From an uncultured Holosporaceae bacterium (GTDB lineage Bacteria > Pseudomonadota > Alphaproteobacteria > Holosporales > Holosporaceae): 64,000 nucleotides of DNA. The DNA is taken from positions 13,733 to 77,732 of the forward strand of contig CAZLKT010000001.1 in NCBI GenBank assembly GCA_964560205.1, given 5' to 3'. A program made the translations under genes and the position numbers. Numbering within the stretch: position 1 is the first letter of the stretch; every line of letters begins with the position of its first letter. Shown piece after piece: positions 20,178 through 63,211 of this stretch. The notes beneath the pieces are model-generated. The model saw nothing but the letters and a program-made list of their open reading frames with translations. It searched no databases and was not told the DNA's origin.

Positions 20178-22772
20178 TTAAATGCAATAACTCATCTCCT
20201 CTCTTTCTTTACCATTACCCTTCCCTGATGCTACTTGCTTTACTCCTGGTTTATCGTCGTCTTTCACCTTCAAGGGATTGGGATCACTAAACCCACCGAG
20301 CCCCATCAATTCTTCTTTTGATCTTTCACCACTCTCTACCATCTCCGCTACTGGTTTGTCTTCTTCTTGCTTTACTCCTCCTTGGTTTATGATCTTTCCC
20401 CCCTCTACCGCCGGACCCTCTTCTTGTTCTACCACCACATCCTCATCTTGGAAACCCTCTAGACTCTTTTGTTCAAATAAAGACTGAACCTTGGGGAGCA
20501 ACATCTCCGCTCCTGGTTTTTTGCCTTCTTCTTGCTTTACTCCTCCTTGGTTTATGATCTTTCCCCCCTCCCCTAGGTTCTCTTCTTGTGCTACCACCTG
20601 ATCCTCATCTTTGAAAATACCTCGTTCGTCTTCTTCAAATAAAGTTGCCAGATAATAGTCTGGATCTGACAGCTGTGACTTCTCTTTCTTCTCTCCCTTT
20701 GGATACTTTTTCTTATACCATTCCCTATTCTCTTTCAACCGTTGCTCTCGCAATTCTTTCTTCTCTTTCAACCGTTGCTCTCGCAATTCTTTCTGCTCTT
20801 GCTGCTTTTGCCGCCTTTCCTCTTGCTGCTTTTGCCCCTTAGGATCATAGTATTCGTCTTCAACATCAGAGTCCTTCCAGTGCTGATCTTTCTTCTCTAT
20901 CCGCCACTTCACATGGTCCAATTCCTGCCTCTTCTCTTCAAATCGTGCGCTTATTTTGTGTCCATATTTTAATAATAAGGCCAGCGTTGCTACTGTTCCT
21001 CCTATCACCATATCAAAATTAGACACCTGCTTCCCATCAAAGAATAGCTTATGACCTAATATACCGCCCAGAGCCGCCTCCATCTTCCAGTTCTTCACTA
21101 ATGAGAGGACGGGGGAGGGGAGGAAACGTGAAAAAAGAGAGCCCTTCATATCAGCTCTCTTCCCCAGTAGCTGCTCATACGGAGGTTGATACAAAGATTC
21201 ATATGAAACGTTTGGATCGCCCTGCCTCTGCTCTACTTCTACACCACTACCCCCCTCTGGCACTTCTTGCTCTACTTCTGCACCACTACCCCCTGGCACT
21301 TCTTGCTCTACTTCTTCATTGAAGGGCTTGTAAACAACACCCGCCTCTTCTATTTCTTGTCTTTCAACATTTTTTTCTAAAAATTCCTCATGCAATTCTT
21401 CTATACCACTACTACCCTTCCCTGGCGCTCCTTCCTCTACTTCTTGTTCGTTTACGACGCCTTCTACCACCCCTTCTTGTTTTAGCGCAATCTCCTTATA
21501 TAGGAAATCCTCTAAATCACTTTGATAGAAAGCAGCAGCATCATTATTAAGCTTAAGTTGAAGTAGTTCATCAGGTAACTTCTGCTTACTGTAGGCATGT
21601 AGCATCGCCACCACTCTAAAAAGTGGAGATAGCCGATCTGGCTTCTCTTTCAGATCTGGCTTCTCTTTCAGATCTGGCTTCTCTTTCAGCTCTGGTTTCT
21701 CTTTCAGCTCTGGCTCCTCTTTCAGCTCTGGCTCCTCTTTCAGCTCTGGCTTCTCTTTCAGCTCTGGCTTCTCTTTCAGCTCTGGCTTCTCTTTCAGCTC
21801 CTCCTTCTTCTCACCCCGCAGCCCCACGTTCTGCTCTTCTTTCTCACCGTTAAAAGAACCCATGCCCACAAACATGTCATCTTCCATTATATTACCAAAG
21901 TCTATTCCTAGAAAGGAGAATGGTCTTGCCACTCCCCAGTTTACCCACTCAAAGATACTAGAAAACAAGCTCTTCACAGGAACAACCTGCTGCTGATGAG
22001 CATTATCATCCTTCTTCTCACCCCTCACTTTTTTTAGAGCATATACTGTTGATAGGATTATCGCGGTGGCTGCTACTCCTCCTAGGGCTAGTGTATATGT
22101 ACTATTCCCTGTAAACCTGTTCAGATAGTTAACAAAATCAGCTACATATCCATCTGTCCCGTTCGAAACAGGTAACTGTCCATTAGTCGTCCCTTCTGTG
22201 CCCACATCGATCCCTTGCTCAACAGATTTCTGTCCATCAGTATTGTCTTCCATCATATGAGTATATGGAAACGCTGTACTTTGCTTTTCCCCAGATACAT
22301 CTTCTGGTACTTGGTTTTGGCTTTGGCTTTGGTTTTCCCCAGGTACTTCGTTTTGGCTTTGGCTTTGGCCTCTGCCTTGCTCTTCTTCTTTATTGCCCCT
22401 TTCAAGCTGTTGAGGTACAAGAAGGTTTTTCAATACTAAACCACCACCACCCAGAACTAAACCAGCAGTCACCGGTACGCCTGGCGCCTCCATCCCTAAT
22501 AATGAGGAGACAAGGGAAGGAGGAGGGGACGTCACAGCTCTTTTTATGTCTCCCTTCACATGCTTCGCTGTTTTGCCAGTTTTCTCCTTACTCCTGCTCC
22601 GTGAAGCCCTATTCTTGGTGCCCTGTTTTCCTCCTTTTACTTGTTTTTGAGGAGTTTGTTTCAGAGGTTTTTTGGTATGGTTATCTCTTCCTCCTGCCGA
22701 CTGCGCCCTTTCTGCATTCGTGCATATAAAAAAAAGTAAAAAAACAATGGAAGTTTTTCGAATACAAGACAT
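20178..22772 (-). CDS. Large secreted/membrane tandem-repeat protein (E/K/Q-rich), unknown function
   Basis: 864 aa. Signal peptide MSCIRKTSIVFLLFFICTNAERAQS. Hydrophobic segments YTLALGGVAATAIILSTVYAL and MVIGGTVATLALLLKYG. At least five internal repeat families: KEKPEL x9, QSQSQN-VP x2, EVEQEVP-GGSG x2, KELREQRLKE x2, and a 54-aa module x2. No family recognised. Confidence 0.8.
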   Translation of the reverse strand: MSCIRKTSIVFLLFFICTNAERAQSAGGRDNHTKKPLKQTPQKQVKGGKQGTKNRASRSRSKEKTGKTAKHVKGDIKRAVTSPPPSLVSSLLGMEAPGVPVTAGLVLGGGGLVLKNLLVPQQLERGNKEEEQGRGQSQSQNEVPGENQSQSQNQVPEDVSGEKQSTAFPYTHMMEDNTDGQKSVEQGIDVGTEGTTNGQLPVSNGTDGYVADFVNYLNRFTGNSTYTLALGGVAATAIILSTVYALKKVRGEKKDDNAHQQQVVPVKSLFSSIFEWVNWGVARPFSFLGIDFGNIMEDDMFVGMGSFNGEKEEQNVGLRGEKKEELKEKPELKEKPELKEKPELKEEPELKEEPELKEKPELKEKPDLKEKPDLKEKPDRLSPLFRVVAMLHAYSKQKLPDELLQLKLNNDAAAFYQSDLEDFLYKEIALKQEGVVEGVVNEQEVEEGAPGKGSSGIEELHEEFLEKNVERQEIEEAGVVYKPFNEEVEQEVPGGSGAEVEQEVPEGGSGVEVEQRQGDPNVSYESLYQPPYEQLLGKRADMKGSLFSRFLPSPVLSLVKNWKMEAALGGILGHKLFFDGKQVSNFDMVIGGTVATLALLLKYGHKISARFEEKRQELDHVKWRIEKKDQHWKDSDVEDEYYDPKGQKQQEERRQKQQEQKELREQRLKEKKELREQRLKENREWYKKKYPKGEKKEKSQLSDPDYYLATLFEEDERGIFKDEDQVVAQEENLGEGGKIINQGGVKQEEGKKPGAEMLLPKVQSLFEQKSLEGFQDEDVVVEQEEGPAVEGGKIINQGGVKQEEDKPVAEMVESGERSKEELMGLGGFSDPNPLKVKDDDKPGVKQVASGKGNGKEREEMSYCI
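20340..20616 (-). repeat. Approximately 115-nt module duplicated with a 162-nt period, inside the 864-aa gene
   Basis: 20340-20455 and 20502-20616 share ...catctccgct-ctggtt...cttcttcttgctttactcctccttggtttatgatctttcccccctc... They encode F(Q/K)DED-VV-QEE...EGGKIINQGGVKQEE-K-(P)-AEM twice. Confidence 0.9.
21635..21798 (-). repeat. In-frame 18-nt tandem repeat, about 9 copies, encoding (K/E)(E)KP(E/D)L hexapeptides
   Basis: The units gatctggcttctctttca and gctctggc(t/c)tctctttca run head to tail. The translation is KEKPELKEKPELKEKPELKEEPELKEEPELKEKPELKEKPDLKEKPDLKEKPD. Confidence 0.95.
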
Positions 22773-23049
22773 AAGCCCTAACCTTTCAAATTAAAAATAC
22801 CTGATATTCATTCTATATGTTTAAACCATCAAAGTCAATAGTAAAAATATATTATTTTTATTTAATATTATATTAATAAAAAAAACTGATGGAATAAGTT
22901 GCAAAGATCATGAAAAAAAATGCACACAACGAAATGAATAACATGCTTTTTGGTCTTTATGGTGGTTTTGCTGATGGAGATGGGAGATTCACACCACAGC
23001 AATAACAATGGCTAAGGCTGCTGCACCCACCATCCAGTTTTCTTTTAAA

Positions 23050-23138: not shown

Positions 23139-25001
23139 TCAGAAATAAAGGAATGCCCTCATCTGATCAAAGCGCTCCTTCAAGGAGGTCGTGTTACCAT
23201 AGAACGGCTTGTAGAGGTCTCCAGAACGAAAATTCATAAAGAGATCAGAGCTGCCAACATACTTCATAATATAATACAGATTAGAATACTCCCCTAGGGA
23301 GAGAAGACCGTGGCCTTGTAATTTCTTTCCAATGCTCGATAGGGATTTTTTTTTCGCAAAAACGCTCTGGTCAGTTCCTCGCCGTGGAGTCATGAGAAAT
23401 AAGACGCTCCGACGATCTTGCAGGGTGGACTCCTCTGCAAAAAAGTACTGTAAAAATGGAATATCCCCAAGCAGTGGCACCTTTTTCTTAGATGTTGCAC
23501 GCCAGGTGGAGTTAAGACCACCAATAACCATGGTTTGTCCAAATTTTGCCCTCACCGTATTTGACACGTTGGCTCGTGTAATGGCTATCATTTGGTCATT
23601 GATACCTATATTCATATTAGGCTCTTCAATAAAACGACTTCCTGTTACCATGATTTCTATGGTGACATAATCCCCATCAATTTCCAATGGAGTGATTTCC
23701 ACCTTTGATCCTGTATCCATATCAATAATACCTGATCCACTGGACCCAGAAGACGTTCCAATGTAGTTTCTTCCACTATAGAAGCTTGCTGTTTTACCAA
23801 GAACAGTGAAAACCGATGGACGATCAATCACCTCTATGCGTCTTTTCTGCACATTGGCAATGTTCAAATTGTATGCCATCACCACAGGAGTAATGGCAAA
23901 ATTAAAAGCCTGAGTCCAACCTTTGGTGATCTCCTCATTGGCAGAAGTTATGGTTCTTGTGAGTGCTACCAAAGGGTTTGTTCCCCCCAATGTCACTGCC
24001 AGTTTTTCCAAAATATTGTTTCCTTTTTGTGTCATCTCCTCCTCAGAAACATGCAACGTGCAGAAATCAACACCAATGGAACACTCCTCTTCTGGAGATG
24101 GTCGTCTTTCTTGTGGAGGAGGAAAATCATGAGGAGGACGCGCCTGCGGTCGTTCTTGAGTTTCCATCTGTGGTTCTTGAATGGATTGTTCTTGCTCATG
24201 TACGTCTTCTTGAGAATCCAGAGATTCTGGCCCTTCTTCGTCATCATCTCCCTGGACCGGCCTTATGGAAGCATGATTATGGAACGTCCCCCAATCAGAG
24301 ACCCTTTTTTGAAGCTGATCCACATCAGAGTACTCCTTGGGCACAAGATTTCTATACTTTTTCACATAATTCCCTGCCTCCTGAGGTTTATTACATGCAG
24401 CATAAATCAGGGCAGCGGCTCGAACCTTTTTTGCATCCTCTGAGGAGAGTTTGAGGGACTGACGAATGGCTGCCGTGGCTGCAGGAAGATCCCCCACGTA
24501 ATAAGACGCATAGGCCAACGCATAAAGTATCTCCGGATCATTGGAGCGAAGACAAAAAGCATCATAGAGATTTTTTTGGGCATCATGATATCGCCCCACA
24601 CGAATTTCATGCATACCCAGAAGATATGATCCCACCCAATTTGATGGATCTGCAGTTTTTGCTGCTTGATAAGCTACACCCGCTAACTCCGGACTGCTGT
24701 CATAACCATTCTGCGCCATGGTCTCATAGACAAGACCGTTGAGGATATGAAGTGTGGAGCTTTTCACAGAAGATTGCAAAGCAACATTAATGTACTGAGA
24801 TGCTGCCCTCAGCTCACCATTGTCAATTTTGTCCCTCAGTGCATCCATGGAAAAATGGGGAGGCAAATCACTATTTGCGCCATGTATCAAAGCAACTTTT
24901 TTTGATATCTCCTCATGCTGACTTCTTTTATCATGACATCCATAGAACAGACAAGAGAAACAAAGTATAGGAAAAAGAGATATGTGTATATTTTTCATCA
25001 T
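23139..25001 (-). CDS. Lipoprotein with an N-terminal TPR-like domain fused to a C-terminal secretin domain (paralog A)
   Basis: 620 aa. Lipobox-like CLFYGC-HDK. TPR-like helices (EILYALAYASYYVGDLPAATAAIRQSLKL). Acidic/Pro linker. Secretin signature GQTMVIGGLNSTWRATSKKKVPLLGDIPFLQYFFAEESTLQDRRSVLFLMTPR. Terminal FLYF. GGAGGAGG SD upstream. Confidence 0.8.
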   Translation of the reverse strand: MMKNIHISLFPILCFSCLFYGCHDKRSQHEEISKKVALIHGANSDLPPHFSMDALRDKIDNGELRAASQYINVALQSSVKSSTLHILNGLVYETMAQNGYDSSPELAGVAYQAAKTADPSNWVGSYLLGMHEIRVGRYHDAQKNLYDAFCLRSNDPEILYALAYASYYVGDLPAATAAIRQSLKLSSEDAKKVRAAALIYAACNKPQEAGNYVKKYRNLVPKEYSDVDQLQKRVSDWGTFHNHASIRPVQGDDDEEGPESLDSQEDVHEQEQSIQEPQMETQERPQARPPHDFPPPQERRPSPEEECSIGVDFCTLHVSEEEMTQKGNNILEKLAVTLGGTNPLVALTRTITSANEEITKGWTQAFNFAITPVVMAYNLNIANVQKRRIEVIDRPSVFTVLGKTASFYSGRNYIGTSSGSSGSGIIDMDTGSKVEITPLEIDGDYVTIEIMVTGSRFIEEPNMNIGINDQMIAITRANVSNTVRAKFGQTMVIGGLNSTWRATSKKKVPLLGDIPFLQYFFAEESTLQDRRSVLFLMTPRRGTDQSVFAKKKSLSSIGKKLQGHGLLSLGEYSNLYYIMKYVGSSDLFMNFRSGDLYKPFYGNTTSLKERFDQMRAFLYF

Positions 25002-25016
25002 GCACTCCTCCTCCCA

Positions 25017-26828
25017 TTAAAAATAAAGAAACTTGGCAATTTGCTCTAATTTATCCTCCAAAGAGCCTCCTGTGGACCCCCAAAAAGGAGGAATCATATC
25101 CCCACTTCGAAAATTATGAAAGAGAGGATTTTCTTCTAGGTGTCGAAGAATAGTGTATACAGTGTGCCGTTCTCCTATGGACATAACACCATGATCTCTC
25201 AGTTTTTGCGCATTGGAGGACAGTGTGTACAGACTTTTTTTCTTTTTCTTTTTGTGAGACTCCCACCGTGGAGAAATAAGGAAAATGGTATTTCTTGTGT
25301 CGCTGTTCGTGGAATTGGATGCAAAAAAGTATTGTACAACAGGAAGATCCTTCAAAAGCGGAGTACCATACTCATGTGCATGCTGAGCAACGGAGTTGAT
25401 ACCACCGATAAAAATCGTTTCACCAGATCTGGCCTTCACCGTGGTAGAAAGCTTTACTTTTCCTAAACTTAAAAGTTGTGTTGTGATGCCTTTTATAACA
25501 TCTGGCTCTTTCAAAAATGTACTGTCCTCAAGGGTAATGTTCAAGGTTAGTACATCATCCTCATCAATAGAAACAGGTAAAATCTTCACATTGGTACCAG
25601 AACTTACAGACGCCACCGTTGATCCTGTAATACCTGCAGTGGCCCCAGTATACTGATCTCCTTCTAAAAAATGTGTTGGTGTGCCCAAAAGTGTGGTCAC
25701 CGTAGGACGAGAAAGAAGCTCCACCGTATCCACATCCACATTGGCAATATTTAAGCTGTACGCTAAGTTCGAAGAGTTCGCGGAAAAAGCAAAATTTTGG
25801 GTCCATCCTCCCGTAATGGCCCCCCCTTTATTTTCTCTGTCTCGGCTAAGGTCCACATAAGGTAATGTGGTCTTCTCCCCGCCCATGGAAATTCTCAGGG
25901 AATCCAAAATATTCTGCCCCATGCTGGTAAAAGTTGTTTGTGTGGACGTCAGCAAATAACAATCAAAAGTGATCACCTGAGCATGCTTTCTTTGCTGATC
26001 ATCTGGTGAGGGTAGCGGCTGTGGCTGGTCATCAGAGAACTCACCCTCCTCTCCCTGAACATTTTCAAAAAAAGCGGTATTGGTGTGAAGCCTTTTCCAA
26101 TCCGCAATTCTTTCTTGCACCATGACCACATCTGCATCATTGCCTTTCATAGCACTTTTATACGCCACAAAAGACGCTTCACTTTGAGTAAAATCCGAAC
26201 ATGCCGCTGATATAATGGCACATGCCCTATGAAAAAGAGCATTCTTCGGCTCCAACGCCACAGCTTTTTGAATGCTCTCACATGCCAAATGAAGATCCCT
26301 TACATAATAGGACGCACATGCTAAGGCATACAAAATTTCTGGTTTTTCTGGGCGAAGGATGAGAGCATTAACCAAATAATCCTGTGCCTTCTGATATTGT
26401 TTTTTCTGAAGCGAATAGCATCCATATAAATAGGCATAAAGCCATTTAGAGGGATCAAGGGTACAAGCCGAACTGTACGCAACGCCTGCAAGCTCCTCAC
26501 ATGTTTCATCACCCCGTCGCGCTCTTTCTTCGTAAATAATGCCATTGATGACGTGTAAGGCTGGAAAATTCACACTGATCTGGAGGGCCTGATTCACAAT
26601 ATGCGACGCCTCCTTCAAATTTCCCCTTCTTATAGACTCTTTTAACTTTTCTAAAGGAAAATATGTGGGAAGATCGAAGTGCTCTTTGGAAAGCCTTGTT
26701 AAGATGTCCCTCTTTTCAAAAAGTCCTTCTCCCCCCAAACTATTCGTAGAAGCAGACTCCTTGTCATGACAAGCACATAGAAAAATACTACAGAGAGAAA
26801 GAACCTTGGCATAATCTTTATTTTTCAT
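25017..26828 (-). CDS. Lipoprotein with an N-terminal TPR-like domain fused to a C-terminal secretin domain (paralog B)
   Basis: 603 aa with the same architecture as paralog A. SIFLCAC-HDK lipobox, EILYALACASYYVRDLHLACESIQKAVAL, GETIFIGGINSVAQHAHEYGTPLLKDLPVVQYFFASNSTNSDTRNTIFLISPR, terminal FLYF. It ends 15 nt upstream of paralog A. Confidence 0.8.
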   Translation of the reverse strand: MKNKDYAKVLSLCSIFLCACHDKESASTNSLGGEGLFEKRDILTRLSKEHFDLPTYFPLEKLKESIRRGNLKEASHIVNQALQISVNFPALHVINGIIYEERARRGDETCEELAGVAYSSACTLDPSKWLYAYLYGCYSLQKKQYQKAQDYLVNALILRPEKPEILYALACASYYVRDLHLACESIQKAVALEPKNALFHRACAIISAACSDFTQSEASFVAYKSAMKGNDADVVMVQERIADWKRLHTNTAFFENVQGEEGEFSDDQPQPLPSPDDQQRKHAQVITFDCYLLTSTQTTFTSMGQNILDSLRISMGGEKTTLPYVDLSRDRENKGGAITGGWTQNFAFSANSSNLAYSLNIANVDVDTVELLSRPTVTTLLGTPTHFLEGDQYTGATAGITGSTVASVSSGTNVKILPVSIDEDDVLTLNITLEDSTFLKEPDVIKGITTQLLSLGKVKLSTTVKARSGETIFIGGINSVAQHAHEYGTPLLKDLPVVQYFFASNSTNSDTRNTIFLISPRWESHKKKKKKSLYTLSSNAQKLRDHGVMSIGERHTVYTILRHLEENPLFHNFRSGDMIPPFWGSTGGSLEDKLEQIAKFLYF

Positions 26829-30455: not shown

Positions 30456-31874
30456 TCAAGACTTTTTATGGGGAATGGATGGTTTTTCAGGATGCGCCGC
30501 CCACACAGTTAAAACCCCATCGGAGTTAAAAAGAAAAATCTTTCCATGGGCCACAGCGATGGCAGCCTTTTCCGCACCCTCACTCCCTTTATACTCAGAA
30601 AGAATATGACCTTTTTTGGTGGGGTCCATGGCGATAATATCCCCCTCATTATTCACCACATATACCGCATTATTAGCTACAAAAGGACCAAACCACGCTG
30701 CAGAAGGAAGCCCACGTGCATTCACCAAATCTTTTGCCCACATGACCTCCCCTGTATCTGCATGAAGTGCCACCATCCTCCATGAAGACATCCCCATTTC
30801 CGATGGTTTTTCTATGCAAAAAAGCATATGCCCTGAAATCCAGGGGGTACTGTTTAAGCGCAGGGGACACTTCCATATGAGATCCCCTGTCTCAAGCTGG
30901 TAACAACACACATAATGATCAGTCGTAACGGTGTATAGATAATGGTTATTAATAACGGGAGAGCATCGTGTGTGGGAAAGATGGTGCTGGGTGGAGGCCA
31001 AAGATTTTGTTTTTTTCCCATCATTTTTAATCCATAAAAGCGCTTCATTCACAAGAGATAATGCCACCACCTCACCCGAAGAAAATGTAGACACCATAAT
31101 GCCATCATCAGAAATAGAGGGCGATATATTGCCCAAATACCGCGATTCCTCCACAAGACCAGAATAGTCCATCACAGACTCTCCGGTTTTCGTATCAAAA
31201 ATCTCCACCTGATTATTCATATTAAGACAACACACATAGTTCTCATAGTATACTGGCGCTCCACGGACCGGAGCCGTGGTGGCTTGGGTCCACAGAGTAC
31301 TCCCATCTTTTTCGGAAAGACAAAAAATATGACAGCAGGGGGTGGTAATAAAAAGATGTCCCTTCCCGTCACTACACATGCCACCACCAAACTGTGTCAC
31401 ATCTGACTCTTCTGAAAGCGCCTTATTCCACTGGAGCTGACCAAAAAGATCCACGCAATGAACGGCACCACAATGATAGAGAAAAACATGGTCGTGGGTA
31501 ACAATGGGGGTGGCCGTCAAGTAACTGGGTTCCTGCCTGGTGCTATAGGACCATGCAGGAGTCAAAGGCCCTGGTGAAAGAAAAAGATTGCTGCTGTTGC
31601 GAGACGCAGTACGCCCATCCTGAAGCCACAGAAGATCCGCCCTCATAACTGGGGAAAGAATAATTTCTCTTTCTCCTGCCAACGAAGATTCCACGATCTT
31701 CGAGGTTGTATCATCCACATCCACTGAAATACGCTTTCCCTCCAAAGGTATTTTTTCCTTTTCAAAGAGACTGCATCCTCCGAGAAAAAGTCCACATAAA
31801 AGGACCACCCCCATGGAAAGCGCTCTTTTCTGTGTCAACAGACCCTTCAAAAAACTCCAACAACATTTTGTCAT
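30456..31874 (-). CDS. bamB: PQQ-like beta-propeller outer-membrane lipoprotein (BamB-like)
   Basis: Lipobox LFLGGC-SLF. Repeated beta-propeller blades with W/G periodicity. It lies immediately downstream of a YfgM-like gene, as in the conserved yfgM-bamB pair. The start may be the internal MGVVLLC methionine at 31814. Confidence 0.65.
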   Translation of the reverse strand: MTKCCWSFLKGLLTQKRALSMGVVLLCGLFLGGCSLFEKEKIPLEGKRISVDVDDTTSKIVESSLAGEREIILSPVMRADLLWLQDGRTASRNSSNLFLSPGPLTPAWSYSTRQEPSYLTATPIVTHDHVFLYHCGAVHCVDLFGQLQWNKALSEESDVTQFGGGMCSDGKGHLFITTPCCHIFCLSEKDGSTLWTQATTAPVRGAPVYYENYVCCLNMNNQVEIFDTKTGESVMDYSGLVEESRYLGNISPSISDDGIMVSTFSSGEVVALSLVNEALLWIKNDGKKTKSLASTQHHLSHTRCSPVINNHYLYTVTTDHYVCCYQLETGDLIWKCPLRLNSTPWISGHMLFCIEKPSEMGMSSWRMVALHADTGEVMWAKDLVNARGLPSAAWFGPFVANNAVYVVNNEGDIIAMDPTKKGHILSEYKGSEGAEKAAIAVAHGKIFLFNSDGVLTVWAAHPEKPSIPHKKS

Positions 31875-58485: not shown

Positions 58486-60000
58486 CTACACTGGTGGTGT
58501 CTTTGGGAGATCGTCTAGCGGTAGGACACTCGGCTCTGGACCGTGTAACCCTGGTTCGAATCCAGGTCTCCCAGCGTTTCCTTGGGTGAGTGCGCCCTTA
58601 GGATTTCTTCTCCTTTCTTCTTTTATATTTTTGAGAAGATCACGAAAGTCCTTGGCTTTTTTCTCATAGGGGTCCCCCATGGGTAAAATTTTCAATGCTT
58701 CATCGATGTGAAACTGGGCTTTTTCGAGATCGTTTTCATGGAGCGCGCATTCCGCCAAGCACACACGCATGGGGCCAAATTTTTGCAGTTTTCCATAAAC
58801 AATGCCAAGACGATACCAGACCTCGGGACTAGGCTCGGAAACAAAGAGAAGCTGCTCTAAGGTTTTGACTGCCTCCTTTAAAGCTTCTGGATTATCCATC
58901 ATGGTGAGAATATGTGCTTTAAAAGATGCCAGGAGCATGTCCCTAGGGCGATGCTTTACTGCTTGGTCTATGGCCTCTTTCGCCTCAGGAATACGTCGAG
59001 CGTCCACAAGGATTTGTGCTCGAAGCTCTTCTATAAAGGCAGTGGTAAAGACAGGATTGTTCCGCAAAGGATCTAATATCTGGAGAGCCTTATCCCATTG
59101 ACCCAATCTATAGTGGACAATGGCTTTCCCATAATCTTTCATAATCTGTGGAACAGGAAGCTTCTCAATGGTGAGAAATGCTCCAGCAAGGTCTGTGAGA
59201 TGGGCGATAATTTTTGTTTTTATGAGGGAGAATTTGAGGGAAAAAGTGTGGGGCATGGGGAGGATATTTTTTTGCTCCAGCTTTTCTTTATAGTAATGGG
59301 CAGACATCATACGATCTTTGGAAAACGGGTGGGTTCTTAAATACGGATGCACGCTGTAAACAGAATCTTTTTTGCCTAATTTTTCCATCATGGCAAGAAA
59401 GCCATCCATGGACCATTTCAAGCTTGAAAGCACATGAAGAGCAAATTGATCTGCAGAAGATTCTTGAGTTCTGCTGTATCCCATGAGATCAGCATAGGCC
59501 CAATATTGTCCAATATTCCCAAAGCCAAATGCTCGAACATCCCTCAGAAGACCTGCAGCCAAAAGCCCCAAAAGGGTGGATAATATGGATCTATTTTGTG
59601 TTCTGCTTAAAAGCTCCACACGACTGATCCAATGTTTGCCAGCAATGTGACCAAGCTCGTGGTACAGCACCGCAATGAGCTCTTCCACGGAATCCATTGA
59701 AGCGATAAGACCCGTGTTGCAAAAGATTTCTTGATTAGGTGTGGCAAAGGCATTGATGGAGTCTGTGACAATGACATACATGCGTACGCGGTGAATCTCT
59801 GGTACCTTTCGCAAAGCGGGTGCGAGAAACTCTGCAAGCACTTCTTCGATTTCACTATCGCGAAGCACTGCCCCCTCTTGGATTCTCAGAGGAAAGGAAA
59901 AAATGTCTTGTGGAGCAAGGAAGAAAGAGATCTGCAAGGGAAGAAGAAAACAAAAAAAGTATCTACTGAGAATGCTTGTGAGAAAACTCTTTCTTTTCAT
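58486..60000 (-). CDS. M48-family zinc metalloprotease with C-terminal TPR repeats (BepA-like)
   Basis: Signal sequence, the HELGH zinc motif (LYHELGHIAGKH), and TPR-like helices. The last codons (...RPGFEPGLHGPEPSVLPLDDLPKTPPV) are antisense to tRNA-Gln. Confidence 0.8.
   Translation of the reverse strand: MKRKSFLTSILSRYFFCFLLPLQISFFLAPQDIFSFPLRIQEGAVLRDSEIEEVLAEFLAPALRKVPEIHRVRMYVIVTDSINAFATPNQEIFCNTGLIASMDSVEELIAVLYHELGHIAGKHWISRVELLSRTQNRSILSTLLGLLAAGLLRDVRAFGFGNIGQYWAYADLMGYSRTQESSADQFALHVLSSLKWSMDGFLAMMEKLGKKDSVYSVHPYLRTHPFSKDRMMSAHYYKEKLEQKNILPMPHTFSLKFSLIKTKIIAHLTDLAGAFLTIEKLPVPQIMKDYGKAIVHYRLGQWDKALQILDPLRNNPVFTTAFIEELRAQILVDARRIPEAKEAIDQAVKHRPRDMLLASFKAHILTMMDNPEALKEAVKTLEQLLFVSEPSPEVWYRLGIVYGKLQKFGPMRVCLAECALHENDLEKAQFHIDEALKILPMGDPYEKKAKDFRDLLKNIKEERRRNPKGALTQGNAGRPGFEPGLHGPEPSVLPLDDLPKTPPV
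58504..58574 (+). tRNA. tRNA-Gln (anticodon CUG), no encoded CCA
   Basis: Hand fold: TGGGAGA TC GTCT AGCGGTA GGAC A CTCGG CTCTGGA CCGTG TAAC CCTGG TTCGAAT CCAGG TCTCCCA G. The U1-A72 pair is typical of tRNA-Gln. There is one U-U mismatch in the anticodon stem. Confidence 0.75.
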
Positions 60001-60898
60001 GTTTTTTCCAAGAAAGCACGAGGAGTGACGAGAGTATAACACAAGATCCGCATATCATCCACCATGTGGGATATTCTCTGAAGAAAAGCACTCCCATCCA
60101 TGCACCAAGCACCAATTTAAAGGACCCAACAGGAAGAAGGAAGGAGAGGTCGGTATAGGAAAAAGCTTTGCCAAGGCACCAATGGGCAAAAGCCAAAGCA
60201 ATTCCGCATAACCAGAGAAGAGCGCACTCCTCCCCCGTGGGCCATATCCAAAGGGGGATGCTTGGCAATAGTGTTATACTGACAGAAAGCATAAGAACAC
60301 ACGCAATGGATTGTGGTGAAAACTTTTCATGTAAAAGTTTTTTTCCCAAGATATTGGACAACGAACAGGAAAGGGCCGCGCAGAGAGGCACAAGCATCAG
60401 CCATGATGCGTTTTCTTCTGCAGAAACATGGGATGTGCTGAAAATTCTGGAGCCCTCCATGAGAAGAATCCCTCCACATATGCCAAGCATAATGGATACG
60501 CTGCGCTGCATGGACAGGTTTTCTTTTAAAAAAAGTTTTGCCCCCAGTGCTGTGAAAAAAGGCCCCATGAACCCAAGGGCAACACTTTGAAAGAGGGGAA
60601 GTTTTTGTATGGCATAGGTCCATGATATAACGCTTATAACGCTTATAAAAGATCGAGCCAAGGATGACCACGATGACAAAAGCCCTCGGGGGAAACTTCT
60701 CAGGATGCATAAGAGAAAAACCCCTCCTATGAAATTCTGGCAACAGGCTATCTGTAAAGCGGGCAGAGAAAGACTCTTTATCAGCACGTTGGAAAGAGAA
60801 AAGAAGAGACACGCCAAAAGCTTCCACAGGATCGCCTTTTGGGCAGAAGAAGACATGTGTACAGGAAAAAATCTCATGGCTCCTCTTGCGTCTTGCAT
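59963..60898 (-). CDS. EamA/DMT-family transporter
   Basis: About 10 hydrophobic segments in two similar halves. The start codon is uncertain. Confidence 0.7.
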   Translation of the reverse strand: MQDARGAMRFFPVHMSSSAQKAILWKLLACLFFSLSNVLIKSLSLPALQIACCQNFIGGVFLLCILRSFPRGLLSSWSSLARSFISVISVISWTYAIQKLPLFQSVALGFMGPFFTALGAKLFLKENLSMQRSVSIMLGICGGILLMEGSRIFSTSHVSAEENASWLMLVPLCAALSCSLSNILGKKLLHEKFSPQSIACVLMLSVSITLLPSIPLWIWPTGEECALLWLCGIALAFAHWCLGKAFSYTDLSFLLPVGSFKLVLGAWMGVLFFREYPTWWMICGSCVILSSLLVLSWKKHEKKEFSHKHSQ

Positions 60899-61933: not shown

Positions 61934-63211
61934 ATGTTTGGGAGGGGTCCTTTGTCTTCTTTTGGAAATTTTGTCGCTTTGCGATTTTTGTGGTCCTCGC
62001 GGCGAAGGGGATTCGCAGCCCTTGTGGCAATGTTCTCCTTTGTGGGGGTCGTTTTGGGGGTGGCAACGCTTATTATTGTCATGTCCGTCATGAATGGGTT
62101 TCGCCATGAGCTCATGCATCGCATCTTAGGTCTTAATGGACATATTACCGTTTATTCTGGAAAGTCTGTTATGAAAGATTTTTCTGCTGTGCAAGAATAT
62201 ATTGTGCGTGATCCCTTTGTGACCCAGTGTTCGCCCATTATCGAAAAACAGGGCCTTTTTCTTGCCCAGGGGGCTTCAGGAGGGATTATTCGAGGCATTA
62301 TTCCCTCCGCCTCCTATCATCAGAATTCCCTCTTGTCCAAAAGCCTTCTCCAGGGAAGCATCATGGATATGGAGACGCCTTATACAGTTATTATCGGCCA
62401 TAAGCTGGCAAAAAAAATTCATATGCGGGTGGGGGATCGCATGAAAATTATGGTGGCACAAAATCGCCCCACGGTTATGGGGTTTTTGCCGCGTTCTCGT
62501 TCCTTTCGTGTGGTGGGTATTTTTGATACGGGGATGCATGAATATGATCAGGCTTTTGTATTTATGTCCTTGGCCACTGCACAAAAATTTTGGGATATGC
62601 CTTCGGACACGGTGACACATATGGAAATTTTTGTTAAAGACCCGGAAAACATAGACAACATCTCTCGTCATATGGGCATCCAGCTTGCTGAAGGCTTTCC
62701 CCATGAGGAGCTTCTTGTCTATGATTGGCAAAAGGCCAATGCCCACTTTTTCAATGCAATTCAGGTGCAGAGAAATGTGCTTTTTCTCATTCTCCTGTTG
62801 ATTATCCTTGTGGCAGTTTTTAATATTGTGGCCTGTCTTATTATGTTGGTGCAGGATAAAATAAAAGATATTGCTGTCTTACGAACTCTGGGGGCCACAC
62901 GAGGAGCGATTTTAGGCATCTTTCTTCGGGTGGGCGCCTTTATTGGGGGTGTGGGAACCCTTGTGGGCACGATTATTGGGCTTTCGTTTTCTTATTACAT
63001 CGATCATATTCGTCGCTTTTTGGAGTTCTGTTCTGGTGCAGAGCTTTTTCAAGCGGAAATTTACTTTCTCTCAAAGCTTCCTGTGCAGATTCGTGGCTTT
63101 GAAGTTTTTCTTGTGGCTTTTGTAACCATTGGACTGAGTTTTGTGGCATCTTTCTATCCTGCATGGAAAGCATCACGACTTCATCCTGTGGAAGGATTAC
63201 GTTATGAGTAA
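61934..63211 (+). CDS. lolC: Lipoprotein-releasing ABC transporter permease (LolC/LolE family)
   Basis: ...[44 protein letters not shown]..., a periplasmic MacB-like domain, and a C-terminal FtsX-type transmembrane bundle. Confidence 0.85.

Follow-up and report, generated by a model that had tools for sequence, protein, structure and literature searches.

Two secretin genes in tandem

The 64,000-nucleotide (nt) stretch analyzed here, called the window, is from an uncultured Holosporaceae bacterium (assembly GCA_964560205.1, contig CAZLKT010000001.1, positions 13,733 to 77,732). On its minus strand lie two adjacent genes encoding proteins of 603 and 620 amino acids (aa), each of which joins a tetratricopeptide repeat (TPR) module to a secretin domain behind a lipoprotein-like N-terminus; we call them TPR-secretins. 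A preliminary description of this locus had reported two neighboring open reading frames (ORFs) of these lengths, with a 15-nt gap and a strong Shine-Dalgarno sequence, and had taken them for a tandem duplication. The coordinates and the spacer sequence GGGAGGAGGAG bear out that layout: the TAA stop codon of the 603-aa ORF occupies 25019-25017 and the ATG of the 620-aa ORF is at 25001, leaving 15 nt between them. GGGAGGAGGAG is a strong Shine-Dalgarno sequence ahead of the 620-aa ORF, which suggests that the pair is translated as an operon. The duplication was likewise confirmed, by 37% identity from end to end (BLASTP, E 2e-126), and the two genes are evidently paralogs. The 620-aa ORF opens with ATGATG (24996-25001, minus strand), and the NCBI protein runs from the second ATG and has 619 aa. 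The public protein collection has an exact entry for the 603-aa protein and the 619-aa form of its partner, both without a name.

Domain architecture and predicted structure

The Pfam Secretin profile PF00263, whose gathering threshold is 27.5 bits, matched residues 368–521 of the 603-aa protein (80 bits, E 2e-22) and residues 384–540 of the 620-aa protein (91.7 bits, E 5e-26), in keeping with the C-terminal secretin domain first described. By this score both proteins belong to the secretin superfamily, with a barrel-and-gate fold predicted for the 620-aa protein. TPR_2 rose above its cutoff in the 603-aa protein only (31.5 vs 27), and every Pfam TPR model fell under its cutoff in the 620-aa protein. 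Neither protein gave a Pfam match to Secretin_N, STN, AMIN, T2SS-T3SS_pil_N or BON, even at E ≤ 1, and profile-profile alignment with classical secretins reached residues 386–575 only. The N0–N3 ring domains are missing from both proteins, as had been proposed for N0 and N1, and the secretin core is of the minimal size found in RcpA and pIV.

We modeled the 620-aa protein as a monomer with AlphaFold2, from an alignment of 139 sequences (mean predicted local distance difference test score, pLDDT, of 75.6). Thirteen helices run across residues 52–244 with pLDDT >90. These make up ∼195 aa, in line with the roughly 200 aa of TPR helices originally read from the sequence, for which the TPR_2 match speaks in the 603-aa protein. 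The acidic, proline-rich linker of that first reading is seen at residues 245–305 as an unstructured segment (pLDDT of ∼50 or less; ∼44–62 at 246–305), and it is gap-rich in alignments. A beta-rich core follows at 308–541, with pLDDT 80–96 across 380–540, and then a helical tail at 545–619, which is of low confidence except at 591–600 (pLDDT 76). A model made from an earlier 9-sequence alignment had the identical layout.

Foldseek searches with the secretin core matched GspD, PilQ, InvG, RcpA and pIV at E ∼1e-14 to 1e-9 and probability 1.00, with BfpB also among the matched solved secretins. The best match was PDB 8jvb / 9wfd, an Acidithiobacillus caldus 'Type II secretion system protein'. The TPR part matched generic TPR proteins best, namely consensus TPR, MamA and OGT; PilF stood at rank 49 in a first search and was not among the 50 matches listed in a second.

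Both N-termini match a lipoprotein pattern, for which we used a PROSITE PS51257-style expression. The candidate lipidated residues are Cys20 of the 603-aa protein and Cys22 of the 620-aa protein, each followed by HDK as the preliminary description had it. Positions of all features are collected in Table 1.

Table 1. Coordinates of the tandem TPR-secretin genes, their predicted parts and a neighboring gene, as positions in the window
Feature	Coordinates	Strand	Basis
Upstream TPR-secretin (603 aa)	25017..26828	-	ORF; PF00263 80 bits, TPR_2 31.5 bits
Signal peptide and lipobox, 603-aa protein (residues 1-20, IFLCA-C20-HDK)	26769..26828	-	Pattern match; lipidation predicted
TPR module, 603-aa protein (~57-250)	26079..26660	-	TPR_2 at 163-196; boundaries via alignment to the 620-aa model
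Acidic/Pro-rich linker, 603-aa protein (~251-284)	25977..26078	-	Gap-rich and non-conserved in alignments
Minimal secretin barrel, 603-aa protein (~285-522)	25263..25976	-	PF00263 at 368-521; N-terminal strands inferred from the 620-aa model
C-terminal tail, 603-aa protein, with FRSGD motif and terminal FLYF	25020..25262	-	Conserved F/R/G/D columns and end motif
Shine-Dalgarno-like GGGAGGAGGAG in the 15-nt spacer	25005..25015	-	Direct sequence reading
Downstream TPR-secretin (620 aa)	23139..25001	-	ORF; PF00263 91.7 bits; cluster look-up
Signal peptide and lipobox, 620-aa protein (residues 1-22, LFYG-C22-HDK)	24936..25001	-	Pattern match
TPR module, 620-aa protein (50-245)	24267..24854	-	AlphaFold2 helices, Foldseek TPR matches, conserved residues
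Disordered acidic/Pro-rich linker, 620-aa protein (246-305)	24087..24266	-	Low pLDDT, without secondary structure
Minimal secretin barrel, 620-aa protein (306-541)	23379..24086	-	Strands E308-E541; PF00263 at 384-540; Foldseek
C-terminal tail, 620-aa protein (542-620), with FRSGD at 591-595, amphipathic end helix and FLYF	23142..23378	-	AlphaFold2, motif statistics
Repeat-rich E/K/G protein (864 aa), putative cargo	20178..22772	-	ORF, signal-peptide-like N-terminus

A widespread TPR-secretin family

We searched for relatives with an exhaustive HMMER profile search of 1.84 billion representatives of 50%-identity clusters, which returned 672 proteins at E ≤ 1e-30. Of the best 150 of these, which scored 430 bits or more, nearly all matched across almost their full length. 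The window proteins themselves align to positions 1–614 of the family profile, with 781 and 822 bits. At the looser cutoff of E ≤ 1e-10 the same search gave 29,216 proteins, which we took as secretin-domain proteins in general. It was the exhaustive search that revealed the family; word-indexed homolog searches returned only 7–11 relatives, even when started from a 76-sequence alignment. A separate scan with a degenerate pattern, over one genome per species, located 80 loci; at most of them the match begins in the TPR region and extends to the query's final residue. The pattern was built from a 5-sequence subset, the initial 9-sequence alignment being too divergent. Because there are hundreds of full-length homologs, the distinct domain layout is not a product of chance.

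The closest relatives are in a Holosporales metagenome-assembled genome (MAG), at 40% identity, and in Holospora obtusa and H. undulata, at 33–34%. Further hits were found in many alphaproteobacterial MAGs and in Thalassospira, Herminiimonas, Rhodoferax, Geobacter, Desulfuromonas and Sulfurospirillum. A neighbor-joining tree gave no resolution as to whether the duplication in the window is common to Holospora.

In the alignment of 139 members, 52 positions are conserved at 85% or more. They include the lipobox cysteine (96%), a TPR signature (A67, N88, Y92, Y111, Y167, D171, R233 and W237), residues of the secretin core and an F-R-x-G-D motif in the tail. The 603-aa protein retains 51 of the 52 and the 620-aa protein 50, so both paralogs are under constraint. 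A lipobox-like pattern is present in 117 of the 139 members. The C-terminus has the form hydrophobic-hydrophobic-aromatic-aromatic in 105, mostly FLYY, FLYF or FLWY. In most betaproteobacterial members the lipobox cysteine is missing and the signal peptide is of the plain kind (loci L019, L030, L036, L038, L044, L048, L052, L055, L056 and others).

None of the curated NCBIfam models claims this family, and our literature searches on TPR-secretin fusions, orphan secretins and secretin domain architectures found nothing relevant. Profile and alignment evidence indicates that the window pair belongs to a large, conserved, widespread and unannotated family of TPR-secretins and is not peculiar to the window's genome.

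Relation to known secretins, pilotins and exporters

NCBIfam models for the secretin classes, MshL, HofQ and PilN among them, scored only 25–66 bits against cutoffs of 238–598, which upholds the original placing of the pair outside the known classes. The GspD model TIGR02517 gave 42 and 60 bits where at least 351 are needed, the N0-N1-N2-N3 series (PF21305, PF03958) was not found, and there are no gspC–M genes in the 64-kb window. The PilQ model TIGR02515 gave 66 and 44 bits (at least 284 needed), with AMIN, STN and Secretin_N absent as noted. For RcpA/CpaC there was no PF13629 match, and tad genes adjoin just one of the 80 loci. The SctC model TIGR02516 gave 47 and 53 bits (at least 238 needed), and the window has no genes of a type III secretion system (T3SS). 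The PilW pilotin model TIGR02521 reached 31 and 18.5 bits against a cutoff of 154. Both proteins thus lack the defining features of every characterized secretin class, and they lack the family-level sequence match expected of a pilotin. The preliminary description had called the TPR module pilotin-like; the TPR part of that label stood, while the pilotin part found no specific support, given the TIGR02521 scores and the low structural rank of PilF.

One further match, to PHROG 1012 (M13 protein IV, E ∼1e-13), might point to a functionless remnant, either of a pIV-like gene of a filamentous phage or of a decaying secretin gene. That match spans the shared secretin domain only. No phage genes were found near the pair, whose neighbors are housekeeping genes, both ORFs are intact and keep 50–51 of the 52 conserved positions, and conservation of the family extends over hundreds of clusters, all of which makes a remnant scarcely credible. 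We rejected prophage pIV origin and pseudogene status alike, as effectively refuted by conservation and context.

What the pair shares with the classical secretins (GspD/PulD, PilQ, RcpA/CpaC, SctC/InvG and pIV) is a homologous C-terminal secretin domain with a predicted double-walled barrel and gate. The cores of RcpA and pIV are equally small (TM-score normalized to target, 0.58). Unlike the classical secretins, the window pair is without N0, N1, N3, AMIN, STN and pil_N domains, and TPR-secretins, within 10 kb at 79 of the 80 loci, are not encoded with ATPase, platform or pilin genes. They also add an 80-aa tail with the conserved FRSGD motif and a FLY(F/Y) end.

Closer likenesses exist for separate parts of the architecture. 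The liposecretins HxcQ, BfpB, PilN and MshL have an N-terminal lipobox on the secretin itself, as is predicted here. They retain their N-domains and occur in complete operons for type II secretion systems (T2SS) or type IV pili (T4P), and none of them is known to have a TPR module. Self-piloting by its own lipid anchor is described for HxcQ (Viarre 2009, as cited in PMC12475490). The TPR pilotins PilF, PilW, Tgl and TadD resemble the predicted layout in combining a lipobox with ∼6 TPR pairs beneath the outer membrane, but they are separate polypeptides, whereas the TPR module here is fused to the secretin, and its sequence likeness to them is that of generic TPRs only. The secretin RcpA binds in the TPR groove of TadD through its last four residues, which assembly requires (PMC10499894); in parallel, the TPR-secretin carries a conserved C-terminal motif on the same chain as its TPR module.

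On paper the type XI secretion proteins (Slam/T11SS, DUF560) are alike too: a single polypeptide comprises a TPR domain in the periplasm, a linker and a pore in the outer membrane. Their pore is a monomeric 14-strand barrel and not a multimeric secretin, and they have no sequence relationship to TPR-secretins. They require no inner-membrane or ATPase partner, and we propose the same for TPR-secretins. Slam/T11SS cargo first crosses the inner membrane via inner-membrane transporters, and cargo and transporter genes co-occur (PMC8406197). That cargo is marked by a TbpBBD barrel (PMC8406197), whereas neighbors of TPR-secretins have jacalin, tectonin and pentapeptide domains.

The exopolysaccharide exporters PgaA, BcsC, PelB and AlgK-AlgE likewise join a TPR scaffold to an outer-membrane pore, either by fusion or as partners. 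They have another type of pore and another cargo, and no polysaccharide synthesis genes were found nearby here. This build raises the alternative that the pair exports a polymer such as exopolysaccharide or slime across the outer membrane, as a PgaA/BcsC/PelB-like protein with a secretin pore. The order of TPR, linker and pore is that of synthase-dependent exopolysaccharide porins (PMC9384988, PMC8406197), secretins are required for slime secretion (PMC12475490), and the jacalin and tectonin domains of recurrent neighbors are carbohydrate-binding. Yet neither the window nor the set of recurrent neighbors includes a gene for a glycosyltransferase, a synthase or polymer modification, the PgaA and BcsC models match only negligibly (13 bits), and a reduced-genome lineage of obligate symbionts keeps two copies without such genes nearby. 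We regard polymer export as improbable.

Gene neighborhoods of relatives

The 80 homologous loci, 1.36 Mb in total, were surveyed by calling and clustering their ORFs. Among same-strand neighbors within 100 nt of the secretin gene, 48 of 60 encode soluble proteins with signal-peptide-like N-termini, whereas for the rest of the genes at these loci the figure is 175 of 856 (odds ratio 15.6, Fisher p = 5e-21). This coupling to signal-peptide proteins is the strongest functional clue, and the preliminary description had missed it. By Pfam, large jacalin-domain proteins are encoded near the secretin at 13 loci, with a second jacalin-domain cluster besides, pentapeptide-repeat proteins at 12 and tectonin-domain proteins at 6; a lipase-like hydrolase is another recurrent neighbor. 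Two-component regulators are also common near the secretin. Betaproteobacterial members are paired with jacalin-domain secreted proteins of 750–1040 aa and with a histidine kinase/OmpR-type regulator pair. H. obtusa (L003, 9887-15710) and H. undulata (L004, 473 to the end) also have a TPR-secretin pair in tandem, with 19 nt between it and the next gene, which encodes a hybrid sensor histidine kinase (HisKA, HATPase, REC). The same histidine kinase family occurs near the secretin at 17 of the 80 loci.

Six loci have a different arrangement (L012, L020, L021, L023, L033, L053). Within a region from ∼5 kb upstream to 1 kb downstream of the secretin, the secretin gene is immediately preceded by one for an NMT1_3-family solute-binding protein and followed by a pentapeptide-repeat gene. 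Genes overlap there by a few bases, which suggests coupled translation. An MFS-sensor protein is additionally encoded at L020, L021 and L023, and an ABC-type (ATP-binding cassette) binding protein at L021 and L023. It is these loci that suggest a large gated outer-membrane channel that takes up nutrients, DNA or peptides and feeds periplasmic binding proteins, and two other observations fit: an ABC importer is encoded near the pair in the window, beyond rho, and the secretins HofQ and PilQ serve DNA uptake. However, the binding-protein linkage is confined to one subclade, DNA uptake through secretins requires a pilus, and most of the linked genes encode large secreted proteins rather than transport components. 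An uptake channel is to our mind very improbable.

Genes for an inner-membrane machine were almost wholly absent. A T2SE/CpaF-type ATPase motif was present within 10 kb at a single locus, L039, and at the other 79 no ATPase, platform or pilin motif was found within that distance. At L039 (207-9469, a Pseudomonadota MAG) the TPR-secretin gene is directly upstream of a complete Tad operon comprising RcpC, a CpaC-type secretin, FHA-CpaF, TadB, TadC, DUF192 and TadE. Since this operon has its own CpaC-type secretin, it does not need the TPR-secretin. The arrangement hints at a possible evolutionary tie between the TPR-secretin family and Tad systems.

L039 also lends some weight to the idea that TPR-secretins serve a T4P, Tad or T2SS machine whose other genes lie elsewhere in the genome; the pilotin would then be fused to the secretin, and docking through N0 would be taken over by the TPR module or by an adaptor protein. 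We consider this unlikely, though it deserves to be taken seriously. Machine genes are missing within 10 kb from 79 of 80 loci, and the exceptional Tad operon brings its own secretin. The proteins lack an N-domain by which they could be lined up with a platform in the inner membrane, and an enrichment of signal-peptide neighbors is not expected of a pilus secretin. Free-living hosts such as Herminiimonas and Rhodoferax normally possess canonical PilQ and GspD besides. In favor of such a machine, separate TPR lipoprotein pilotins normally partner PilQ and RcpA (PMC10499894), 'incomplete type IV pili' are reported in Holosporales (PMC9992710, whose supplements do not itemize the T4P genes of Holosporales), and a T2SS is cited for H. 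obtusa in PMC9866348 (citing Dohra 2014); Garushyants et al., however, found no such systems in Holospora (PMC5911502).

Surroundings in the window

The preliminary description had seen no secretion or pilus machinery genes in the 64 kb, and our scans agree. No T2SS, T4P, Tad or T3SS component was found among the scanned window ORFs of at least 150 aa, and a motif scan of the window for T2SE-type ATPases and prepilins was negative. The genes scanned were housekeeping genes, those for MucR/Ros, which indicates an alphaproteobacterium, BamA, HflX, IleRS, SecF, Sua5, an ABC importer, a BamB-like protein, GyrA, SSB, YidC, AlaRS, Ddl, PrmA, SodB, Lon, Der, a BepA-like protease and a LolC/E-like permease. 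The rho gene is divergent from the pair, with the ABC importer beyond it on the far side. Five tRNAs were found in the window, and no other Rfam family.

Four of these genes concern the outer membrane: BamA at 4069-6495 (plus strand), a BamB-like PQQ propeller at 30456-31874 (minus), a BepA-like M48 and TPR protease at 58486-60042 (minus) and a LolC/E-like permease at 61934-63211 (plus). With Bam and Lol genes in the window, the routes that a liposecretin needs are at least partly present.

Downstream of the pair by 366 nt, on the same strand and behind its own promoter-like site (22838..22810), is the gene for an 864-aa protein with three weak hydrophobic segments. The gene holds four tandem-repeat arrays, one of them an 18-nt unit repeated ∼9 times (21637-21800) that coincides with KEKPELKE-type repeats of the protein, and its region has extreme GC and AT skew. 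The protein has no Pfam or PHROG match and no homolog in the related loci. By its features it resembles an effector-type or host-interaction protein and is a possible cargo of the secretin, to which its tie is purely positional. The families that recur beside relatives (histidine kinase c1, jacalin c2 and c26, pentapeptide c3, tectonin c10) have no homolog in the window.

A proposed stand-alone secretin channel

We tentatively favor, at a little short of calling it probable, the interpretation that the pair forms a secretin channel which stands alone, targets itself and lets out periplasmic cargo, akin to Slam/T11SS or to the PgaA-type TPR-barrel exporters but with a secretin as its pore. The N0–N3 rings couple classical secretins to an inner-membrane machine, and the best explanation of the architecture is that in this family they have been replaced by an outer-membrane-anchored TPR module. 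The original interpretation, a self-piloting liposecretin whose usual docking domains are replaced, is partly supported.

Under the stand-alone channel model, both proteins would be exported by Sec and lipidated, the one at Cys20 and the other at Cys22, and Lol would then deliver them to the outer membrane's inner leaflet. There the 236-residue secretin core would oligomerize into a gated multimeric pore. The TPR module, on a flexible linker of ∼35–60 residues, would take the role of separate TPR lipoproteins such as PilF, PilW and TadD, and may also capture periplasmic cargo. The pore would run without a T2SS, T4P, Tad or T3SS platform and release Sec-exported periplasmic proteins, which in relatives would usually be those encoded next door. 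The two diverged copies may form two channels or a mixed ring.

Several points weigh against this stand-alone channel. The window has no tightly coupled cargo gene; the 864-aa gene, 366 nt off, has its own promoter-like site. The absence of machinery genes is a statement about a 64-kb window of the genome, and the pilus and T2SS reports for Holosporales and H. obtusa given above count here as well. In some relatives, operons with solute-binding proteins and an MFS transporter are a poor fit to cargo export. The signal-peptide predictor behind the neighbor enrichment was crude and home-made, with the remaining genes of the loci as internal control. As to the pilotin label, ∼16% of family members are without a lipobox, and the last helix has a pLDDT of ∼40 in the AlphaFold2 monomer, which leaves docking of the tail to the TPR module within one chain unsupported. 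The pilotin model score, the structural ranks, the lipobox-less members and the undocked tail are the reasons why we infer self-piloting rather than assert it. Finally, we know of no secretin that opens without a piston or filament pushing from below, and the gating and energy supply of a machine-free pore are unexplained.

Holospora and possible free-standing secretins

Published genome analyses disagree about the outer-membrane secretion systems left in Holospora (PMC5911502 vs PMC9866348). By one account it keeps only Sec, Lol, Bam and a TolC-like protein (Garushyants et al., PMC5911502), and it is the exception among Holosporineae in being without a type VI system (PMC11909080). Its infectious forms nonetheless have a huge periplasm that serves as a protein store, and some of the stored proteins are released to the outside, the 63-kDa PRP1 being one (PMC9866348); an 89-kDa protein of H. 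obtusa is reviewed in PMC11909080. That the reduced Holospora genome still holds the tandem pair we count in favor of a stand-alone channel. The pair conserved in H. obtusa, H. undulata and the window's organism is a concrete candidate for the exit of periplasmic effectors.

A bolder proposal, which we put forward as possible though rather unlikely, is that TPR-secretins constitute an unrecognized secretion route, widespread in Proteobacteria and consisting of the secretin alone or with one adjacent gene. In that route a lipid-anchored fusion of TPR receptor and pore would act with no inner-membrane machine, and in Holospora it would be the missing exit for the stored 63-kDa and 89-kDa proteins.

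Secretins are usually pictured as part of machines that span the envelope (T2SS, T3SS, type IV pili, phage export), where they form the end in the outer membrane and are coupled to the rest by their N-terminal rings. A family with the rings swapped for a TPR module, with no machine nearby and with secreted-protein genes alongside, suggests that secretin pores may be usable for export on their own. The finding is relevant to the gating and targeting of secretins and to an unannotated share of proteobacterial secretomes.

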